64,000 bases of DNA from a phage: the NCBI GenBank assembly GCA_017003895.1, contig GCA_017003895.1_4520.1; one strand, 5' to 3'. How positions within the stretch are numbered: position 1 is the stretch's first letter; every line of letters starts with the position of its first letter. Under the pieces are notes generated by a model. The model was not told the origin of the DNA. It saw nothing but the letters and a program-made list of their open reading frames with translations, and ran no database searches. This document shows positions 2,681 to 61,065 of the stretch, in pieces. Position numbers and translations under genes: made by a program.

Positions 2681-3790
2681 ATGATTAGTGTAAAAGAAAT
2701 AGTAGTAGATGCAAAGGATTTAAATAAAGCAATCCCAGTCTCAGAAAGTGCTGGGCAAAGCACTAAAACCGAAACAACTACTAAAACTTATGTTGCCCAA
2801 TTTCCTACAGGAAGAGCAGCCGGAAATGACTCCACAGGAGACTTCCAGGTAACGGACCTTTATAAGAATGGATTATTATTTACCGCGTACAATATGTCTG
2901 CACGCGATTCAGGATCCCTCAGGAATTTACGTCCGGCGTATGCCGGGACTTCATCTAATGGTATCATATCAGATTTAACTGATAACGTGAAAGATGCAGT
3001 GACTAAATTCTCAAATGGCTTGCTTCCTGCCGGAGCTAATAAATCTACTATAAATAAAACTCCTGTTGCTAATATACTTTTGCCACGTTCCAAATCTGAC
3101 GTCGATACAACTTCACATCGTTTTAATGATATCGGTGATAGCCTTATTACTAAAGGTGGAGGTACTGCTACGGGTGTTTTAAGTAACATTGCTTCTACTG
3201 CAGTCTTTGGTGCATTAGATTCTATTACTCAAGGGCTTATGGCTGATAATAACGAACAGATTTATACGACTTCTCGTAGTATGTACGGTGGTGCTGAGAA
3301 CCGTACCAAAGTCTTTACATGGGATTTAACTCCGCGTTCAACTGAAGACCTTATGGCTATTATAAACATTTACCAGTATTTTAACTATTTCTCATATGGT
3401 GAGACCGGTAAATCACAGTACGCCCAAGAGATTAAAAGTTATTTAGACGAATGGTACCGTTCAACGTTTATTGAGCCTATGACGCCAGATGATGCAGTAA
3501 AAAATAAGACATTGTTTGAAAAGATTACTGCGTCATTAACAAATGTATTAGTTGTAAGCAACCCTACAATTTGGATGGTTAAAAACTTTGGTTATACATC
3601 TAAATTTGATGGATTAACTGATGTATTTGGTCCATGCCAAATTCAAAGCGTACGTTTTGATAAAACTCCAAATGGACAATTTAATGGTCTTGCTGTTGCT
3701 CCTAACTTACCGTCAACATTTACGTTAGAGATAACAATGCGAGAAATTATTACATTAAACCGTTCTTCACTTTATGCGGGGACTTTCTAA
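2681..3790 (+). CDS. 48: Baseplate tail-tube cap gp48
   Basis: 369 aa (T4 gp48 about 364 aa); synteny 29-48-54. Confidence 0.7.
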   Translation: MISVKEIVVDAKDLNKAIPVSESAGQSTKTETTTKTYVAQFPTGRAAGNDSTGDFQVTDLYKNGLLFTAYNMSARDSGSLRNLRPAYAGTSSNGIISDLTDNVKDAVTKFSNGLLPAGANKSTINKTPVANILLPRSKSDVDTTSHRFNDIGDSLITKGGGTATGVLSNIASTAVFGALDSITQGLMADNNEQIYTTSRSMYGGAENRTKVFTWDLTPRSTEDLMAIINIYQYFNYFSYGETGKSQYAQEIKSYLDEWYRSTFIEPMTPDDAVKNKTLFEKITASLTNVLVVSNPTIWMVKNFGYTSKFDGLTDVFGPCQIQSVRFDKTPNGQFNGLAVAPNLPSTFTLEITMREIITLNRSSLYAGTF

Positions 3791-4752
3791 TGTACTCTTT
3801 AGAAGAATTTAATAACCAAGCTATAAATGCAGATTTCCAACGAAACAATATGTTTAGTTGTGTATTTGCTACTACACCATCGACTAAATCATCTTCACTA
3901 ATTTCGTCAATTGGTAGTTTTGCTTATAATAACTTAGGGTTGGATTCTGATTGGTTAGGATTGACTCAAGGTGATATCAATCAGGGCGTAACAACCCTGA
4001 TTACAGCAGGAACACAGAAATTAATTCGAAAATCAGGTGTAAGTAAATATCTGATTGGAGCAATGAGTCAACGTACGGTACAAAGCTTGTTAGGTGAGTT
4101 CACAGTAGGAGCTTATCTGATAGACTTCTTCAATATGGCATATAATAATACAGGTTTAATGATTTATTCTGTAAAAATGCCTGAGAACCGATTATCTTAT
4201 GAAACGGATTTCAACTATAACTCCCCGAACATCCGAATTACCGGTCGAGAAATGGACCCGTTAGTAATAAGCTTTAGAATGGATTCCGAAGCATCCAACT
4301 TTAGAGCAATGCAGGACTGGGTAAACTCAGTCCAAGACCCTGTAACAGGTCTTCGCGCTTTACCACAAGACGTCGAAGCAGATATTCAGGTTAATTTACA
4401 TGCACGAAATGGTTTACCGCATACCGCTGTCATGTTCACCGGATGTATTCCTGTTAGTGTCTCTTCTCCTGAGTTAACGTATGATGGTGATAATCAGATA
4501 ACAGTTTTTGATGTAACATTTGCTTATCGCGTTATGCAATCAGGTGCTGTAAATAGACAGGCTGCTTTAGAATGGTTGGAATCAGGACTTATTAGTAGTG
4601 TTTCAGGAATGTTTGGAAATAATCAGAATGATTCTGGTCTAGGAAGTGCAGTATCAAGACTTTCTAGATTAGGTGGGACCGCTGGAGGTGTGTCTAATAT
4701 AAACACATTGACAGGTGTGGTGAATTCTACATCAAGAGTTTTAGGACTATAA
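3790..4752 (+). CDS. 54: Baseplate tail-tube initiator gp54
   Basis: 320 aa, same as T4 gp54; start overlaps the gp48 stop; followed by a hairpin terminator. Confidence 0.7.
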   Translation: MYSLEEFNNQAINADFQRNNMFSCVFATTPSTKSSSLISSIGSFAYNNLGLDSDWLGLTQGDINQGVTTLITAGTQKLIRKSGVSKYLIGAMSQRTVQSLLGEFTVGAYLIDFFNMAYNNTGLMIYSVKMPENRLSYETDFNYNSPNIRITGREMDPLVISFRMDSEASNFRAMQDWVNSVQDPVTGLRALPQDVEADIQVNLHARNGLPHTAVMFTGCIPVSVSSPELTYDGDNQITVFDVTFAYRVMQSGAVNRQAALEWLESGLISSVSGMFGNNQNDSGLGSAVSRLSRLGGTAGGVSNINTLTGVVNSTSRVLGL

Positions 4753-52698: not shown

Positions 52699-54516
52699 TT
52701 AGGACATCCATTCTTTACGAAGTTCTGAATCATCACCCATCAACATTTCAAATAGTTCTTTCCAATTTTCAGGAAGTTTAACTACGTCGTACACAGGGTT
52801 CTGAATCATTTCACGATATTCTGACTTTTCAAGGGAGCCTAATCCCTTGATGTATCGAATACTATGCTTAGGCAGTGTATCTTTAACTTCTTCATACTCA
52901 GCTACAGTATAAAACCATTTTTGAGTTTTGCCAATTTGTGCAATAATTACAGGCGTTTTAACAAAGCGAATACGTCCCTGTTCAAACAATTCAGGCCAAT
53001 TACTAAAGAAAGCAAGCAAAGCCGGATAAATACTTCCAAGACCGTCATGATCGGCATCGGTCATAATTGCAATATTACGATAGTTCGTATTCTCTGCCTT
53101 TTCGCCAAGAATAAGACCTGTGATAGCACAGATATCAAAGAGCTCTTTGTTCTTCATCATATCAGCATATGACATACCCCAGCTATTCATCACCTTACCA
53201 CGTAACGGGAATCCACCGTGTAGTTCACGGTCACGAACATCAATGAGATAACCAATTGCCGAATCACCTTCTGTTAAGAACAATGTCGTATCTGCATCTT
53301 TACCGCATTGGTTAGCTTTAATATGCTTATGAACCTTAGCTTTAGTTGCCTTTTTAGCTGCTTTAGTTTCTGCAGCCTTTTCTGCTGCCAATTTACGAGC
53401 TAATGCTGCTTCAACAATAGGCATAATCAAGGCTTCGTTTTTAAGAAGTGCCTGAGCAATTTTCTTAGCATCTAATTGGATATGATTACGAATATCACCA
53501 TACGTTGACGTTAAACGTTCTTTAGTCTGAGAATCAAAACGCATATTGCTCATGTCTCTAATAAACATCAACATTGTGAGGCATTCTTTAACACGAGCTT
53601 TAGTGACTTCAATACCCTTATATTTCTTTTTAATACCTGGCAAAAGATGTTCGCAGATATCATCCATTACACATTCAACATGATGACCACCATTTTTAGT
53701 ATGGATGTTATTCACATAAGTTAAATGACGGAAGCCATCTGGTGATGTTGTGAATGCTATAGAGACTTTATCATTTTCTTGAATGATGTTATCTTCACCA
53801 AATTGTTTAGCAAATCGTTTAAAATTACCATCAACCTTTTTACCATTAAATGTGAACTTGATATCAGGATAAACGACTGCCAATGTTTGAAGTCGGTCTA
53901 AAGTAATATCTAAATAAATTTGAGATAAATTATGCTCTTCAAATGAAGAGAAATCAGGAGTGAAGATTACTTTAGTGCCTTTACCTTTAGATTTCTTAGA
54001 AGACCATGATTTGTTTTCCATTCCGTTTGAACAGTTAACAGTGATTTCGTTTTCGCCATCTGACGTGATGCCTGTAAACAACGTAGAGAAGATATTAGTT
54101 AAACTACTCCCGACGCCGTTCATACCACCAGTCTTGCGTTCAGAGTCATCACCAAAGTTACCACCGGCCTTTGGAATAGTCCAGGCTGCTACAGGCCCAG
54201 GAATTTGTTCACCTGTTTGGTCAGTAACTAAACCTTGAGGAATACCACGCCCGTTATCTTCCACCGAAACTTGATTATTTTTAATTTGCACATCAATTTT
54301 ATTTGCAAACTTAAATGATGTACGAATAGCTTCATCAACCGAGTTGTCAATAATCTCATCGATTAATTTAACCAGACCAGGAACATATTCAACTTGTTGA
54401 TATTTACCAAACAAAAAACGCTCATGTGCTTCTTTAGCAGAAGAACCAATATACATACCACTACGTTTCTTAATATGTTCTACATCTGACAATACCTTAA
54501 TTTCATTTTTAATCAT
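52699..54516 (-). CDS. 39: DNA topoisomerase II large subunit (GyrB-like), single uninterrupted ORF covering the T4 gene 39 + gene 60 equivalent
   Basis: 605 aa; GHKL ATPase N-terminus, toprim-like region and C-terminal segment in one frame; no bypass element or separate gene 60. Confidence 0.85.
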   Translation of the reverse strand: MIKNEIKVLSDVEHIKKRSGMYIGSSAKEAHERFLFGKYQQVEYVPGLVKLIDEIIDNSVDEAIRTSFKFANKIDVQIKNNQVSVEDNGRGIPQGLVTDQTGEQIPGPVAAWTIPKAGGNFGDDSERKTGGMNGVGSSLTNIFSTLFTGITSDGENEITVNCSNGMENKSWSSKKSKGKGTKVIFTPDFSSFEEHNLSQIYLDITLDRLQTLAVVYPDIKFTFNGKKVDGNFKRFAKQFGEDNIIQENDKVSIAFTTSPDGFRHLTYVNNIHTKNGGHHVECVMDDICEHLLPGIKKKYKGIEVTKARVKECLTMLMFIRDMSNMRFDSQTKERLTSTYGDIRNHIQLDAKKIAQALLKNEALIMPIVEAALARKLAAEKAAETKAAKKATKAKVHKHIKANQCGKDADTTLFLTEGDSAIGYLIDVRDRELHGGFPLRGKVMNSWGMSYADMMKNKELFDICAITGLILGEKAENTNYRNIAIMTDADHDGLGSIYPALLAFFSNWPELFEQGRIRFVKTPVIIAQIGKTQKWFYTVAEYEEVKDTLPKHSIRYIKGLGSLEKSEYREMIQNPVYDVVKLPENWKELFEMLMGDDSELRKEWMS

Positions 54517-54566
54517 GTTGTCTCCTCGTTATGAAGGTATTCTATCATCCGAAATCTAAAGCAAAA

Positions 54567-54580
54567 AGGGCCGAAGCCCT
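54567..54580 (-). terminator. CUUCGG tetraloop hairpin terminator upstream of gene 39
   Basis: agggc-cgaa-gccct; followed on the minus strand by UUUUU. Confidence 0.5.
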
Positions 54581-55005
54581 TATTTAAATTTAATTTTCTG
54601 AAGTGCATCAATTGCAGCTAAACGCCCTTGTTCACTTTTAACTGTAATGACCACATCGCCTGATACGATCACCGATCCATCAACAAATTCTATAGAGCCT
54701 TTTTTGAAATCGACAGATGTATCTGGTTCCGGAACTTCTTCAAAGAATTTAAATTCTGCACCATAAAGCAGAATATCACCTTGCATACTATGAATAGTTC
54801 GGCCATAATCGCCTACGGCTTCTACAGCAATAACCGAAACACCGTAACCAATCATCTCTTCCACAATAAAATCTTTGGACAATAAAGTAGTATGCAGATT
54901 AGTATTAAGACGTTTACCAGTCGTATTAAGAATTCTCAAGAAATTATCTTCTTGACCTTTGATAATACGATATTTCTTACCAACTTCAAAACCTTTAAAA
55001 GCCAT
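54580..55005 (-). CDS. Hypothetical protein
   Basis: 141-aa ORF upstream of gene 39. Confidence 0.55.
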   Translation of the reverse strand: MAFKGFEVGKKYRIIKGQEDNFLRILNTTGKRLNTNLHTTLLSKDFIVEEMIGYGVSVIAVEAVGDYGRTIHSMQGDILLYGAEFKFFEEVPEPDTSVDFKKGSIEFVDGSVIVSGDVVITVKSEQGRLAAIDALQKIKFK

Positions 55006-55007
55006 AA

Positions 55008-55187
55008 TTAACCCTTCTTAAGTAAGTCGTAAAAACCACCGTTCACATGTTTAGGAGCAGAAACCCGACGAGTAGACAGACGATGACATTCAGGGCAAAC
55101 ATCGTTTTCTCGTTCAGAAATCCTTTTAATTTTTTCATATTCATGTCCGCAATCTTCAGATTGGCATTTATAGTCGTATAACGGCAT
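55008..55187 (-). CDS. Small zinc-ribbon protein (FmdB-like CxxC...CxxC), not in ORF track
   Basis: Manual translation MPLYDYKCQSEDCGHEYEKIKRISERENDVCPECHRLSTRRVSAPKHVNGGFYDLLKKG; two CxxC pairs. Confidence 0.5.
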   Translation of the reverse strand: MPLYDYKCQSEDCGHEYEKIKRISERENDVCPECHRLSTRRVSAPKHVNGGFYDLLKKG

Positions 55188-55192
55188 TATTA

Positions 55193-55603
55193 TTATTCCT
55201 TAAAATGTGCTTTCAACATTTGATACAAAGACCATGCCTGGTCGTTATTTTCGATAGTAATTGTCATCACCGGAAATTCAGACAATTCGTCAAGTTCACC
55301 AGAATCTTGCTCTTCGGACGCTTGATACGGATTTCCAACTTCGTCAAAGAACTCTGCTTCATTCGTGGAGAGCCAGATAAAGTTTTCATCAAGGATATCA
55401 CCGCCTGTTGCGTATCCAACCGTGCCAGTAGATGTCACAATTTTAGTAGGACGTCCAAGATGGTCAACATCTAATACTTTAAATGGTTCCATGCCAAGAC
55501 GTCGTGCATAAATCCCATTATCAGTGTGGTCTTTAATAAACTCTTCTTGGGCACGTTTATCTTTAAATTGGTACCATGAGTTAACGCGGAATTTATTAGC
55601 CAT
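55193..55603 (-). CDS. Hypothetical acidic protein
   Basis: 136-aa ORF in operon orientation. Confidence 0.55.
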
Positions 55604-55830
55604 TAGTAAGTTTCCTTCCAGTAAGTTGTACCGTTTTCAGTGATTTCACGGAAGATACCATAGATAGGCATTTCATCACCGAGTTTTTCGTAAACGTAAA
55701 CCACTTCGGTGTAGCATAAAAATTCGGTCCAGTTTTTCTGTACAACAACTAAATCAGGATTAAACAGAACATCTTCAAACTCATCGATGTTTGAATCAGT
55801 AGTTACGTTTTTAATGATTTGACGTTTCAT
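55603..55830 (-). CDS. Hypothetical protein (start moved to internal Met downstream of promoter)
   Basis: Track ORF start at 55875 lies inside the promoter; ATG at 55828-55830 has AGGAGA Shine-Dalgarno. Confidence 0.45.
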
Positions 55831-55859
55831 AATATTCTCCTCTTGTTTTGATAGGTCTA

Positions 55860-55889
55860 TAGTATCATAGACCATAGTTGTTGTACATC
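55860..55889 (-). promoter_or_regulatory. Early promoter (TGTACA-N18-TACTAT) with -10 in hairpin loop
   Basis: Plus tgtaca at 55884-55889 and atagta at 55860-55865; inverted repeat ggtcta/tagacc (55855-55874). Confidence 0.45.
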
Positions 55890-56412
55890 ATTTTAGCAAA
55901 ATAAAATCAACTTGTTCTGCCAATGAACGTCTAAACATTAATTGACAACTTCCGAGGATGAAATCAGGTGCTTCATAGACTGCGATGTAGTATCCTTTAG
56001 CTTTCAAGAGTTCAACATCCACCTGGTCATCAAACCATGCATAAACCGCATCAACACTTTCAAATCCAAAATAGAACCCTTGAGCCCAATCTTCATTCAA
56101 TTCAAATGTGTGCTCAATTCTATAGTATCTTAAGATATTTTGTTCAAGGAGTTTGTCTTCATTTACTGTAGGACGATTAGGGACATTATAGTTGTCGCCA
56201 TGATGGTAGAAGTTACCTGAGAGTATTCCATGTTTATCAAGGAACTCCCATGTTTCTTCAGAGTTGTCGGTGCCCGACCAACCGTACGGCGAGCGAGGTT
56301 CTTTATTCCAAGAGGTTTCCCAAATTCTGACGGCTTTACCGTCTTTGATAGCAATTCCTGGTAATGATTCACGTTGAGTACAAAAACTACGTTCTACACG
56401 GTAAACTAACAT
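55888..56412 (-). CDS. Hypothetical protein
   Basis: 174-aa ORF preceded by an early promoter and AGGAGA RBS. Confidence 0.55.
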   Translation of the reverse strand: MLVYRVERSFCTQRESLPGIAIKDGKAVRIWETSWNKEPRSPYGWSGTDNSEETWEFLDKHGILSGNFYHHGDNYNVPNRPTVNEDKLLEQNILRYYRIEHTFELNEDWAQGFYFGFESVDAVYAWFDDQVDVELLKAKGYYIAVYEAPDFILGSCQLMFRRSLAEQVDFILLK

Positions 56413-56438
56413 ATTATTCTCCTCTTGTTGATATGGTT

Positions 56439-56467
56439 ATAATATCAAAACCAGAGGAGAAGTAAAC
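56439..56467 (-). promoter_or_regulatory. Early promoter, GTTTAC-N17-TATTAT
   Basis: Plus gtaaac at 56462-56467 and ataata at 56439-56444. Confidence 0.5.
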
Positions 56468-56471
56468 AACT

Positions 56472-56891
56472 TTATGCGAAAGCAGCTGGGCTATATTTTT
56501 TAATTTGGAATTCAGGAACTACCATGAACTGACCAGCGAAAACGATGTTATAAAGCTTAACACCATCTTCTACCCAACGGTCGCTAATAAATCCGGCGAT
56601 TTGCTTAGTTTTCCATGGCGTTCCATCAGTTGCCGCAGCAATAGTGAATTCATGGTCTTTTTCAACAGAAACTGATCTGCATAGTCCCCATTTGAACGCT
56701 TTTTCTTCTGGCTCAATGAACTGGCTTGAGACGTAGCCAATATTACCATTAGCATCACGAACTTTAACTTGGTTACGACCAAAAACCGGATCACTCACAG
56801 AAAGAACTTCAACCAACTTCCCGGCAACTTTAGAGCGAGAAGCAACAGATACATATACGTAATCACCTGTAGAGAGATTTACAATATTCAT
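56472..56891 (-). CDS. Hypothetical protein, paralog family member 1 of 3
   Basis: 139 aa; shares SRSK(A/V)AGKLVEV and GFISD.WVEDG.KLYNIVF motifs with the two upstream ORFs. Confidence 0.55.
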   Translation of the reverse strand: MNIVNLSTGDYVYVSVASRSKVAGKLVEVLSVSDPVFGRNQVKVRDANGNIGYVSSQFIEPEEKAFKWGLCRSVSVEKDHEFTIAAATDGTPWKTKQIAGFISDRWVEDGVKLYNIVFAGQFMVVPEFQIKKYSPAAFA

Positions 56892-56900
56892 AATAATTCC

Positions 56901-57386
56901 TTAAGCTTTACGAGGAGACACATAGCGAGTGATTTCGGATTCTTTAACAACTCGGAAGTCACCTAAGAATACGATATTGTATAACTTTTCACCATCTTCT
57001 ACCCATTGGTCACTAATGAAGCCACACATGGTATCAGTTGTGCTTGGATAACCATATTCATCGATGAAGTCAAATTCTTTATCAGTCTGGAATTCAACAC
57101 CTTTACACAAGGCCCATTTGAACTGTACATTAGGCTCTGTGGATTCAACTTTTTCTCTTGAAGCAAAAGCACTACTCGCAGGAGTTTCCAAGAACTTTGC
57201 ACGAACATAAGCGAACTGAGTTTCCCTCGACCCAAGACTAGGAATAATACGAACTTTTACCTCAGAATCTTCATCTTTAACGCCTTCTTTAAGTTGAATA
57301 CTTACAACTTCGACCAATTTTCCTGCTGCTTTAGAACGAGATTTGTTAGATACGCGAACGATTTCACCAATAATACCAAGATTCAT
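56901..57386 (-). CDS. Hypothetical protein, paralog family member 2 of 3
   Basis: 161 aa; same conserved N- and C-terminal motifs as 56472..56891. Confidence 0.55.
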   Translation of the reverse strand: MNLGIIGEIVRVSNKSRSKAAGKLVEVVSIQLKEGVKDEDSEVKVRIIPSLGSRETQFAYVRAKFLETPASSAFASREKVESTEPNVQFKWALCKGVEFQTDKEFDFIDEYGYPSTTDTMCGFISDQWVEDGEKLYNIVFLGDFRVVKESEITRYVSPRKA

Positions 57387-57415
57387 AATTTTCTCTCTTT
57401 GTTTAAGTTGAATTC

Positions 57416-57444
57416 ATTATACTCCACCCGTCCTTGGATGTACA
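57416..57444 (-). promoter_or_regulatory. Early promoter, TGTACA-N17-TATAAT
   Basis: Plus tgtaca at 57439-57444 and attata at 57416-57421. Confidence 0.5.
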
Positions 57445-57447
57445 ACA

Positions 57448-57942
57448 TTAATTAAGGATATTAACCACAGCACTACGTGGAACTACACTAAAATCACCTG
57501 CATGAACAACGTTCAGAAGTTCAACACCGTCTTCAATCCACTGATCAGTCACCCATCCATTTACTGGACCAGCGAATGGGCGTCGAATTGAAACATATTT
57601 ACACAACAAATCAGTAGGCTCAATAGGCTTAATCAGAGTACCGTACATACAAGCGATATCCATATCAATACAGATATCTTTAACGGGTTCTACTTCTTCA
57701 ATCAACAGTTCAAAGTCGGTGCTTGGAAGGGCGGTGGTAGAAATTGTACCATATGAATTTTTAATTTCTAAGAATAACCAAGGGCCTTCAACTTGTTTGA
57801 TGAAGTTAACAATAGTGAAACTATTACCTTGAGTGGCACCTAAAATTTCACAAAACTTTTCATAAGCTCGCACTGAAGCACCGTACCAGTTGATTTGTTT
57901 TTCATCTTTCAGGATGTAAGTAGCCGTAGTATTGATATTCAT
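57448..57942 (-). CDS. Hypothetical protein, paralog family member 3 of 3 (start moved to internal Met)
   Basis: Track ORF start 57984 lies inside the promoter; ATG at 57940-57942 (MNINTTATYIL) is downstream of it; C-terminus GWVTDQWIEDGVELLNVVHAGDFSVV matches the paralog motif. Confidence 0.5.
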   Translation of the reverse strand: MNINTTATYILKDEKQINWYGASVRAYEKFCEILGATQGNSFTIVNFIKQVEGPWLFLEIKNSYGTISTTALPSTDFELLIEEVEPVKDICIDMDIACMYGTLIKPIEPTDLLCKYVSIRRPFAGPVNGWVTDQWIEDGVELLNVVHAGDFSVVPRSAVVNILN

Positions 57943-57972
57943 AATGTTTTCCTGTTTGGTTAAGATAGAAAG

Positions 57973-58002
57973 ATTATACTCCAACCATCCTTGGTTGTAA
58001 AC
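57973..58002 (-). promoter_or_regulatory. Early promoter, GTTTACA-N18-TATAAT
   Basis: Plus gtaaac at 57997-58002 and attata at 57973-57978. Confidence 0.5.
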
Positions 58003-58007
58003 TGGTT

Positions 58008-58685
58008 TTATCGCTGTTTTACACTTAACGGGTCAGGATTCTCAGGTACATCTTCAAGGCCAAGCGCATAACGCTGAGCGTATTTTAACATCAAAATATC
58101 TTTAGCACAATCATGAACACTATCATGGGCAACGAATCCTTTTAGCGTACCCATCGGTAATGGACACATACTTAATCCTCGTGTCAACGAGTAAGCTTCG
58201 ATTGCCGTACGAATATCGCGTTGAGCCCAGAATTTAACCGGTTCTAATTTATCAGTATCAATATCTGGTTCAAGAACACCTTCATCACGATAGAGGTCAC
58301 GAATCAAATCGACTAAGATTGGGAAGTCAAAGCTCATACCACGGCACCACATCTGTGATTTCCATTGGTCAACTTTATTAGCTCGGCAATAATCTAAAAA
58401 GATTTTAATGCCTTCAAGCGTAGTGACATCATCTTCAGACGGAGCCAAGTTTTTACGCGCTTCAGCCGATTGTTCTTTCCACCATTTCATAGTGGATTTA
58501 GCGAAAACTCGCTTCCCTTTCTGAGAAGCTAAATTAAATTTAATTCGCTTACCTCGTTGAACAAGTTCTTCAAATGATTCAACAACTTCAGGGTCTGAAT
58601 TATATGCAATAACCGCAAGGTCAATAACAGCCGCTTTTGATGTATTGCCGAATGTTTCAAAATCTATAATAACATCAGTGCTCAT
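58008..58685 (-). CDS. dexA: Exonuclease A (DEDD-family 3'-5' exonuclease)
   Basis: 225 aa (T4 DexA 227 aa); N-terminal exo motif VIIDFETFG; T4 position next to dda. Confidence 0.8.
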   Translation of the reverse strand: MSTDVIIDFETFGNTSKAAVIDLAVIAYNSDPEVVESFEELVQRGKRIKFNLASQKGKRVFAKSTMKWWKEQSAEARKNLAPSEDDVTTLEGIKIFLDYCRANKVDQWKSQMWCRGMSFDFPILVDLIRDLYRDEGVLEPDIDTDKLEPVKFWAQRDIRTAIEAYSLTRGLSMCPLPMGTLKGFVAHDSVHDCAKDILMLKYAQRYALGLEDVPENPDPLSVKQR

Positions 58686-58694
58686 AATTTTCTC

Positions 58695-60008
58695 TCAAAT
58701 AAAATGGACGTCAAAACGACCACGAGTTGTGCCGACATACAATAACTGTTTAGCTAATTCTGAATCGGCATAATGGATACACGGTGTATAAACAAAGGCC
58801 GTGTCAACAGACATACCCTGGGCCTTATGGAAGGTTGATACTGGTAGTGCCTTCACCTTAGTGAACATACGTTTAGCATCCCAGAATTCGCTCCATGGAG
58901 CTTTACCACCTTTATTCCAGAATTTGTATGTTTCTGCGGTCTTAGCCAAAAACAAATTGAATTTATAAAGCTCTTCTTCAGAAGAAATAACCTTTATATC
59001 TTCGCGGATGTATTCTTCATCATCACCATATGTTTCTACTGTAAGATTCCAGTATCGTATCATATATTCGCCTGAAACACCACGTGCTTTAACGAATGTA
59101 GACGTTTCTACAGCATCTCGAATACGAACGAATTGCCCATTATTGAAAAGCATTTCGGTCATATTTTTACCATCTAGCTTATATGTCTTAGTAAACGGCT
59201 CTTGTAGAACAATGACTTCATCTTTAATAAATGGCTTTTCTGTTTCAAGAAGTTTTCGGCGAATAATTGAATTTAACTTGTCTACTGACTTATTTGTGAA
59301 TGCCATCATTCGATTTTCGAAAAGGTCTTCAGGAGTTTTAACGACGTTAAAATAGTTCATCATATACGATTTAAGGTCTGTATATCCGTGAACACCGTGT
59401 CCATCAACTACTTTATCGTAAATCCATTTGCCATTACGAATATCAGTCGCAACATCAATAATTGGTGCATTGCTACGTTTAACTTCTGTAAGGTTGCATT
59501 GCACGAAGTCTTTGTGAGTGAAGAAAGGACTTAGATACGCAGTTGATTCGCCTGGGTCTACCGGTCGAATCTGGCATCTGTCACCAATTCCAATTACTGT
59601 ACACCATTTAGGGATACTAGCTAACATTATTTTAAACAGAGGACGGTCGCACATTGACGCTTCATCAAATAACAGTACACGACACAAGGCTAAGTCGGGA
59701 ACCTTTTTCTGCTCAAACAATACGTTTTCTTCGTATGTAGTTGGGTTGATTTTAAGAATGCTATGAATAGTCGATGCTTCTTGACCCGCAAGTTTGCTTA
59801 GAACCTTTTTAGCAGCATGTGTAGGGGCTGCTAAAATAATACCTGATTCTCCAGAAGAAATAAGGGCTTCAACGATGAATCTAGTAAGGGTTGTTTTACC
59901 TGTACCGGCAGGCCCATTAATAGTTACGTGATGTTTCTTTTCTTTAATAGCTTTCATAACAACGTTGAAGGCGTTTTTCTGGCCTTCGGTCAAATCATCA
60001 AATGTCAT
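58695..60008 (-). CDS. dda: Dda DNA helicase (SF1B)
   Basis: 437 aa (T4 Dda 439 aa); Walker A GPAGTGKTT and Walker B LLFDEASM. Confidence 0.85.
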   Translation of the reverse strand: MTFDDLTEGQKNAFNVVMKAIKEKKHHVTINGPAGTGKTTLTRFIVEALISSGESGIILAAPTHAAKKVLSKLAGQEASTIHSILKINPTTYEENVLFEQKKVPDLALCRVLLFDEASMCDRPLFKIMLASIPKWCTVIGIGDRCQIRPVDPGESTAYLSPFFTHKDFVQCNLTEVKRSNAPIIDVATDIRNGKWIYDKVVDGHGVHGYTDLKSYMMNYFNVVKTPEDLFENRMMAFTNKSVDKLNSIIRRKLLETEKPFIKDEVIVLQEPFTKTYKLDGKNMTEMLFNNGQFVRIRDAVETSTFVKARGVSGEYMIRYWNLTVETYGDDEEYIREDIKVISSEEELYKFNLFLAKTAETYKFWNKGGKAPWSEFWDAKRMFTKVKALPVSTFHKAQGMSVDTAFVYTPCIHYADSELAKQLLYVGTTRGRFDVHFI

Positions 60009-60316
60009 CGTAAAGTCCCTGCAATTGGAATACTAACAATACGGCCTGTGTCCAGAATTCGTTGATACAATCTTTGCGTCTCCGCATCTAGTTTAACGTG
60101 TTTCATTTCAAGCTTATTAAACCAGAACTTACGCGGAGTTTCGACCATTCTTAGAACTCCCATTTTTAAATCTGTTTTATACTGTGTTTTCAAAGTATCG
60201 AAAACTTTATCTGCAATATCCTTTCTAAAAAATACTGCAGGACGATGCTCATCAAGTGGAACCGGGACGGTAAATCCTTCCATATCTCGATAAACTATTG
60301 CATATACATAAACCAT
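60005..60316 (-). CDS. Hypothetical protein (dda.1 position)
   Basis: 103-aa ORF; stop overlaps the dda start. Confidence 0.5.
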   Translation of the reverse strand: MVYVYAIVYRDMEGFTVPVPLDEHRPAVFFRKDIADKVFDTLKTQYKTDLKMGVLRMVETPRKFWFNKLEMKHVKLDAETQRLYQRILDTGRIVSIPIAGTLR

Positions 60317-60318
60317 AA

Positions 60319-61065
60319 TTAACCTTTAATTAGTTGGAATAATGATGCGCTAAGTGGTAAGCCGCGTTTCAATTTTAATTTACCAATGAAACCAATCTTT
60401 TCAAAACGTTGCAGACCTTGGATAACTTTATCATATGTATCGAAAAGCGATTCAGCGTCAGTTAATTTAGTTTTAGTTTTCCAGTCAGAACCTTTAAGAA
60501 GAACGTTGAGTTTAGTAAGTTCATGGCCTTCTGCTTGATGTGAGCCATTAATGCGTGCTTTCAAAGCAACAATTCTAAGTTTAGATTCGTTAGATAAAGG
60601 TTGATTTTTCATCATGTTCGCCATATGCTTAACACGATTTTCACGTTTTGCTCGGATTTTTAAAATAGCACCATAAACCTTTTTAATTTGGGCCCATTTC
60701 TTCTCGTCGAGATTAAGTTTCTCTACTTTACGGGCAGAAGGATTAGCAATACGTCTTGCAACAGCGTCACGTTTCTCAATAAGTTCTTCTAGTGTTAAAT
60801 CAGAACGAGCCGTGTTATATTTTTTCTTAACTGGGATAACATTACCTTTAATGTAGCCTATATCATTATTAAAACGTTCTAAGGATAATTTCTCACCTTC
60901 AACAGAGTTATTGAAAGATTCACCTGAGTAAGCGCAGACCTTTTGATCAAGAATGTTTTTAAGGTAATTAAAGTCTAAGTTAAAATCCTTAGAGCGTCTC
61001 TTCGCAGAAGCTCTGGTGTGGTCAAGACGACGATTGATTTTGTTAATTTTATTATTTGATAACAT
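60319..61065 (-). CDS. Probable Srd (sigma-related, anti-sigma-like) protein
   Basis: 248-aa basic ORF at the T4 srd position between dda.1 and the mod genes; assigned by size and synteny only. Confidence 0.45.
   Translation of the reverse strand: MLSNNKINKINRRLDHTRASAKRRSKDFNLDFNYLKNILDQKVCAYSGESFNNSVEGEKLSLERFNNDIGYIKGNVIPVKKKYNTARSDLTLEELIEKRDAVARRIANPSARKVEKLNLDEKKWAQIKKVYGAILKIRAKRENRVKHMANMMKNQPLSNESKLRIVALKARINGSHQAEGHELTKLNVLLKGSDWKTKTKLTDAESLFDTYDKVIQGLQRFEKIGFIGKLKLKRGLPLSASLFQLIKG

Follow-up and report, generated by a model that had tools for sequence, protein, structure and literature searches.

What do three adjacent minus-strand genes in the early region of an apparently T4-like phage encode, and are they three equivalent copies of one gene? 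They lie in the window analysed here, a stretch of 64,000 nucleotides (nt) of phage DNA (NCBI GenBank assembly GCA_017003895.1, contig GCA_017003895.1_4520.1), as open reading frames (ORFs) at 56472-56891 (139 amino acids, aa), 56901-57386 (161 aa), and 57448-57942 (164 aa). A preliminary description made from the sequence alone gave the same three ORFs and took them for a tandem triplet of paralogous early genes of unknown function. We are almost certain that, in the direction of transcription, they are orthologues of motB.1 (164 aa) and motB (161 aa), followed by a second copy of motB (139 aa). Their family therefore has a name and has been characterised in part, rather than being of unknown function, and this set of genes is already known, having been described for RB69. 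Judging from its sequence, the source phage is a T4-like (RB69-type) Mosigvirus and the region is its dispensable early region; over about 3 kb, the segment shares 99% identity with Mosigvirus vB-Eco-KMB38 and 96-98% with many phages of Escherichia and Shigella.

The similarity among the three products was far above chance, although it was unequal. By pairwise BLASTP, the 139- and 161-aa products were 41% identical over 150 residues (expectation value, E, 1.4e-27), whereas the 164-aa product matched the 139-aa product only over 29 C-terminal residues (E 1.6e-9) and the 161-aa product only over 36 (E 3e-9). All three exceeded the gathering score (25 bits) of the Pfam family PF17613 (motB, 'modifier of transcription'), with 182.4 bits for the 161-aa, 75.6 for the 139-aa, and 35.1 for the 164-aa product. 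In a multiple alignment, the C-terminal motif noticed earlier was present in all three, as the common core LCKxV...G(W/F)(I/V)(T/S)D(Q/R)W(I/V)EDG(V/E)(K/E)L(Y/L)N(I/V)V..G.F.VV. The N-terminal SRSK(A/V)AGKLVEV motif, also attributed to all three, was carried only by the 161- and 139-aa products; the N-terminal half of the 164-aa product is unrelated. Thus, the genes are local paralogues, as had been proposed, but not an equivalent triplet: two are full paralogues and the third has one domain in common with them. Searching the window with tblastn for further copies of the C-terminal domain found only these three.

The 161-aa product (56901-57386, minus strand) is identified as the MotB orthologue by PF17613 (E 7.5e-54, profile positions 5-157 of 162), by its 58.6% identity to T4 MotB (E 1.5e-60; Patterson-West et al. 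2018, 2021), and by its AlphaFold2 (AF2) model. Together with the 139-aa product, it falls in phrog_1671 ('MotB-like transcriptional regulator'), and these two products, not the 164-aa one, have the two-domain MotB architecture of an N-terminal SRSK/KOW-like barrel and a conserved C-terminal domain. As in T4, the gene is located in the dexA-cef interval of the Tevenvirinae early region, with dda and dexA upstream and motB.2, cef, and goF downstream, and an early promoter match stands at the homologous place. T4 lacks the extra motB copy that follows motB here.

A marked difference from T4 MotB is the charge. The 161-aa product is acidic (isoelectric point, pI, 5.23; net charge -3), its N-terminal domain carrying +3 and its C-terminal domain -5, whereas T4 MotB has a pI of 9.23, matching the published value. 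The basic charge expected of a MotB family member was not found in this window, where the 139- and 164-aa products have pI values of 7.79 and 4.51. Across MotB orthologues the pI ranged from 4.7 to 9.5, so basicity is not a conserved MotB trait. The charge of MotB did not correlate cleanly with the presence of a second copy, and pI values were scattered inside each clade.

The 139-aa product (56472-56891, minus strand) is assigned as a second motB copy by PF17613, by phrog_1671 (E 6.6e-51), and by its identity to the 161-aa product. It is a full-length MotB copy, with the two MotB domains almost without a linker, and is 37% identical to T4 MotB. RB69p010 ('MotB-like', 139 aa) is 95% identical to it, has the same place right after motB with the same 9-nt junction, and shows no material difference. 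A tblastn survey with the 139-aa product covered 761 phage records with 972 matching places. A copy at least 80% identical was present in 208 of the 761 records, and the remaining 553 gave only matches below 60% identity, with a single motB place in those listed. The total of 972 places is consistent with two places in about 208 records.

Tequatrovirus RB3 (KM606994) also has the second copy, directly after motB and with the 9-nt junction. When its segment 2018-2920 was compared with window positions 56472-57386, the second copy was 89% identical, with a synonymous divergence (dS) of 0.53, and RB3 motB was 89% identical to RB69 motB. The flanking genes of RB3 and Mosigvirus are much more diverged: dexA is 67% identical (dS about 2.1) and motB.2 43%. 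Because the RB3 pair is far closer to the Mosigvirus versions than its flanking genes are, the sequences suggest that the motB pair has been exchanged between genera as a module.

These data bear on whether the second copy is merely a redundant duplicate that is being lost and contributes nothing distinct. Such loss would fit its absence from about 553 of the 761 MotB-bearing records and its state in KMB38, the nearest relative, where a nonsense codon (W93 to stop) leaves it annotated as a 93-aa fragment (OR525701, segment positions 2176-2592). We nevertheless regard it as unlikely. The ratio of nonsynonymous to synonymous substitution rates (dN/dS) was 0.11-0.15 for the second copy, below the 0.22-0.35 of motB, which argues that the second copy is a constrained gene under purifying selection. 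Moreover, it is intact in RB69, RB3, and the window, its 9-nt junction with motB is conserved, and it is kept at 89% identity between Mosigvirus and RB3, where the flanking dexA reaches only 67%.

The 164-aa product, counted from the ATG (57448-57942, minus strand), is identified as the MotB.1 orthologue by phrog_2333 (E 1.7e-82, over residues 1-164, that is, its full length) and by identity to T4 MotB.1 (37% over 134 aa, E 1.6e-26). It is 51% identical to a 166-aa Sf25-type protein and 46-48% identical to 143-145-aa Tequatrovirus proteins. The mechanical ORF runs further, to a TTG at 57984 that lies upstream of the -10 hexamer, inside the promoter region; the homologues are 164 aa long. PF17613 aligns with residues 84-159 only (profile 78-153), and the part in common with MotB is the C-terminal core of about 40 residues. 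We file the product under MotB.1 and not MotB because its N-terminal half is unrelated to MotB. The dN/dS of motB.1 was about 0.3. Compared with T4 MotB.1, it has the same N-terminal domain type and the MotB-type C-terminal core found in the intact 143-aa form. It differs by an insertion of about 20 residues between the domains and by the place of its gene directly after dexA, where T4 has motB.2.

In the literature, MotB homologues fall into groups with a common C-terminal domain and differing N-terminal domains (PMC7827196). T4 MotB.1, encoded just 5' of motB, belongs to those homologues; one of the two genes was probably duplicated from the other, and RB69 was reported to have two motB copies, one motB.1, and one 29-aa peptide (PMC7827196). 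For the N-terminal domain of MotB.1, an LSm-like barrel with kinship to GoF and Frd.2 has been proposed (PMC12152347). In our profile-profile comparison, the alignment of MotB.1 with GoF-like proteins was not significant (probability 0.9%, E 0.063), and the LSm-like assignment is accordingly taken from the literature. A GoF paralogue at 54580-55005 weakly matches phrog_2333 (E 0.0012), which points in the same direction as a GoF/MotB.1 kinship.

The intact gene in the window also revealed a problem in two reference genomes. The T4 reference (NC_000866.4) motB.1, at segment positions 2722-3151 and the counterpart of window positions 57448-57942, encodes 119 aa and is truncated by one extra G at gene nt 347 (ATTGGAAGAT vs. 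ATTGAAGAT); the gene in the window is free of this lesion. The remainder of the conserved C-terminal domain of T4 MotB.1 (EDGVELLNVVHAGEYSVVPRSAVVAILN) is encoded just downstream in a different frame. Among the matches listed, 13 other records give 550 nt against the 551-nt T4 query, namely 11 resequenced T4 records (T4T included), RB55, and RB59; the resequenced T4 genomes thus lack the insertion. MT984581 annotates a 143-aa product, and this intact protein is present on 256 contigs. Kim et al. (2025) made their constructs from NC_000866.4 and reported a 13.8-kDa monomer, a value that equals the mass of the truncated form. Published studies that started from NC_000866.4 may thus have worked with a MotB.1 missing half of its conserved C-terminal domain. 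In the RB69 reference (NC_004928), two single-T insertions split motB.1 (segment positions 3377-3873), and its 132-aa product and the 29-aa ORF RB69p012, taken together, match the 164-aa gene that is unbroken in the window. What Patterson-West et al. (2021) listed as a 29-aa 'Category 3' peptide is then the C-terminal remnant of motB.1. The split may be either a sequencing error or real decay.

At the structural level, the AF2 model of the 161-aa product (51-sequence alignment) had a mean predicted local distance difference test score (pLDDT) of 79, with beta domains at residues of about 1-67 and 87-161 joined by a disordered linker (residues 70-85, pLDDT below 50). Modelled alone, from an alignment that included MotB, MotB.1, and other classes, the C-terminal domain reached a pLDDT of 95.1 with five strands. 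It is thus confidently modelled as a Tudor/SH3-like barrel, and the N-terminal domain of MotB is modelled as a KOW/SH3-like barrel. The fold matches were to KOW domains of Spt5, NusG, and RfaH, to ribosomal proteins, and to Tudor domains, all at the level of the fold only; the KOW profile of the NusG-Spt5 type (Pfam PF00467) gave no sequence match. An OB fold (cold-shock-like) was assigned to the C-terminal domain of MotB in PMC7827196; our model is contrary to this, as OB-fold proteins were not its closest matches. A PDB sequence search with the MotB and MotB.1 orthologues returned only unrelated chains (E 0.35 and 0.055), and thus no solved relative detectable by sequence, and a BFVD fold search gave significant E-values only for members of the MotB and MotB.1 families.

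The family is narrow: a profile search among 1.84 billion representatives gave 30 clusters (50% identity) at E of at most 0.001, and word-indexed searches found only proteins of T4-like phages or of bacterial assemblies in which such phages are probably present. Within it, the C-terminal domain is joined to varied N-terminal regions, from the MotB.1 types of 143-169 aa to classes of about 180 and 250 aa. In proteins of 147-149 aa from phages of Klebsiella and Enterobacter, a MotB-like N-terminus is joined to a MotB.1-type C-terminus.

As had been suggested, each of the two upstream genes has its own early-type promoter match directly 5'. A sigma-70 match, TTTACA-N17-TATAAT, lies between dexA and motB.1 (57973..58001, minus strand; 11 of 12 consensus positions), and TGTACA-N17-TATAAT lies 5' of motB (57416..57444, minus strand; 10 of 12). 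They were the top two promoter matches in 3.3 kb (55500-58800). In total the region held 13 promoter-like sites, no excess over the 9.9 +/- 2.9 expected from shuffling. T4 carries TTTACA-N17-TATAAT at the homologous place 5' of motB. The stretches of promoter plus leader of motB (57390-57442) and motB.1 (57947-57999) share 75% identity along 53 nt (repeat D3); these regulatory regions thus look duplicated or homogenised together with the genes. The leaders at both promoters gave no hairpin beyond chance (z-scores -0.5 and -0.1).

The junction between motB and the second copy measured 9 nt from stop codon to ATG, not 10 as first described (56892..56900, minus strand; TAA GGAATTATT ATG). A Shine-Dalgarno-like AAGGA overlaps the motB stop codon, and neither a promoter match nor a terminator match was found between the two genes. 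The same 9-nt spacing occurs in RB69 (segment 2855-2863) and RB3 (segment 2492-2500). From the short gap, the position of the AAGGA, and the lack of such matches, the second copy is probably co-transcribed with motB, as had been proposed, and its translation is probably coupled.

What these proteins may do is best approached from the founding member. T4 MotB is an early, abundant, and toxic protein that binds DNA, whether modified or not, irrespective of its sequence. Its copurification with H-NS and StpA requires DNA, it alters the H-NS footprint, 75 host genes are upregulated, about one-third of them in the H-NS regulon, and it doubles the burst size (PMC6070864, PMC7827196). MotB also compacts DNA and derepresses H-NS silencing, as relayed by reviews (PMC12449154, PMC13096335). 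Early relief of H-NS silencing was likewise proposed for T7 gp5.5, T4 Arn, and LUZ24 gp4 (PMC7827196, PMC12449154); however, these bind H-NS directly or mimic DNA, whereas the association of MotB with H-NS depends on DNA, and they have no kinship with MotB in sequence or fold.

Taking the locus as a whole, we think it likely that the motB.1-motB-second-motB segment encodes early proteins acting on H-NS and DNA. Each product would consist of two small beta-barrels. MotB and its extra copy would have a KOW/SH3-like N-terminal barrel with a basic SRSKxAGKLVEV loop, and MotB.1 a different N-terminal domain, LSm-like according to the literature; all three would end in the Tudor/SH3-like C-terminal barrel. 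Two strong sigma-70 promoters would let host RNA polymerase transcribe the genes right after infection, and the motB transcript would also carry the second motB copy. In the 161-aa protein, the basic N-terminal barrel, the C-terminal barrel, or both could contact DNA, and, judged from its homology with T4 MotB, this protein would coat host and phage DNA without sequence specificity. It would remodel H-NS/StpA-DNA complexes early in infection and lead to a larger burst, effects shown experimentally only for T4. For the acidic 161-aa orthologue in particular, by analogy with T4, we lean towards this H-NS/DNA mechanism with moderate confidence. For the 139-aa copy, a similar or cooperating role in the same process is most likely, and MotB.1 may pair the same C-terminal module with another nucleic-acid-binding barrel; both suggestions are made more weakly.

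Several points weigh against this H-NS/DNA explanation. The MotB orthologue here is acidic, whereas the basic charge of T4 MotB was the original rationale for DNA binding; with a pI range of 4.7-9.5 among orthologues, the transfer of tight non-specific DNA binding is not assured, and this limits how far the T4 DNA-coating model applies to other phages. T4 mutants with motB.1 deleted or interrupted by an amber codon showed no phenotype, and an RNA reporter assay did not respond to MotB.1 (PMC12152347). Both promoters are consensus matches only, and the second copy is interrupted in KMB38, as described above.

We also considered RNA, or the transcription and translation machinery, as the main target of the proteins, in place of a role as DNA-coating nucleoid proteins. 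Barrels of the KOW, LSm-like, and Tudor-like kinds typically bind RNA or proteins, the fold matches to Tudor domains, ribosomal proteins, and the KOW domains of Spt5, NusG, and RfaH would suit such a role, the MotB.1 N-terminal domain was reported as LSm-like with GoF and Frd.2 (PMC12152347), and MotB of this phage is acidic. We find this rather improbable. A dedicated anti-defence locus against a specific bacterial immune system is highly improbable: the genes are early-expressed, variable in copy number, and in a dispensable region, and H-NS itself can be viewed as a xenogeneic-silencing defence (PMC7827196), but the literature searched gives no link to any defence system, PADLOC had no matches (weak evidence, as its library holds models of defence and not of anti-defence), and the family, with 30 representatives at 50% identity in a search of 1.84 billion proteins, is confined to T4-like phages. 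Thus, of the earlier reading as host-takeover or anti-defence genes, the takeover role stands as reported for the founding member, and nothing supports a specific anti-defence role beyond the countering of H-NS.

A more speculative idea, which we give little chance of being right, is that the common C-terminal barrel is a docking or oligomerisation module and that the MotB job is divided between the copies in two-copy phages. If so, MotB, the linker-less copy, and MotB.1 would assemble on one partner, either DNA-bound H-NS or each other, and form a small phage chromatin-like set in which DNA or RNA is recruited by the differing N-terminal barrels. The job of the single basic MotB of T4 would then be split between the acidic MotB and the near-neutral copy.

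The value of the locus as a discovery is small, given that the family, the sharing of domains, and the copy-number variation have been published and that hundreds of phage genomes carry a MotB-like annotation. New here are the model of the C-terminal fold, the purifying selection on the second copy, the acidic MotB, and the split motB.1 genes in the reference genomes.

Regarding the neighbourhood, the gene order in the window is dda, dexA, motB.1, motB, second motB copy, motB.2, and cef, identical to that of RB69. From the ORF list with Pfam and PHROG matches, dda was placed at 58695-60008, dexA at 58008-58685, cef at 55603-55875, goF at 55193-55603, a 39.2-like zinc-ribbon gene at 55008-55187, a GoF-like gene at 54580-55005, and topoisomerase gene 39 at 52699-54516. 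The window thus contains two GoF-like genes. The one at 54580-55005 (141 aa) adjoins gene 39, matches phrog_622 (E 8.5e-22) as goF does, is 23% identical to the goF orthologue, and has counterparts in RB69 and RB3. An Rfam scan of 54000-60500 gave nothing above the gathering score; the only match, to Y_RNA within the coding sequence of motB.1, stayed below it (25.9 of the 38 bits required; E 0.06) and was dismissed as chance.

The next ORF downstream of the 139-aa gene is the motB.2 orthologue (55888-56412, 174 aa), 34% identical to T4 MotB.2. A hairpin is predicted 5' of it (56413-56471, minus strand; -17.4 kcal/mol, z-score -3.1), in which UUCUCCUCU pairs with AGAGGAGAA and the motB.2 Shine-Dalgarno sequence would be sequestered. 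A third promoter match (56466..56439) places its -10-like TATAAC/TATTAT in the loop region of this hairpin. T4 motB.2 has an equivalent and stronger upstream hairpin (-23.7 kcal/mol, z-score -5.1) of other sequence. The arrangement resembles a known T4 device in which read-through transcripts would be translationally silent and promoter-proximal transcripts translated. With its own promoter and hairpin, motB.2 follows the second motB copy in the window and RB69, and in T4 (segment 3162-3662) and RB3 (segment 994-1497) it stands directly after dexA; it is a promoter-plus-gene cassette that occupies two different positions.

Finally, cef is probably shorter than its mechanical ORF (90 aa, from 55875): Pfam T4_Cef covers residues 16-89, and in relatives the product is annotated with about 75 aa. 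The ribosome-binding regions of cef (55828-55847) and motB.2 (56410-56429) are 95% identical over 20 nt (AACAAGAGGAGAATAWTATG), a likeness that also yields a 19-nt inverted repeat, 95% complementary, on both sides of motB.2 (55835-55853 and 56443-56461).

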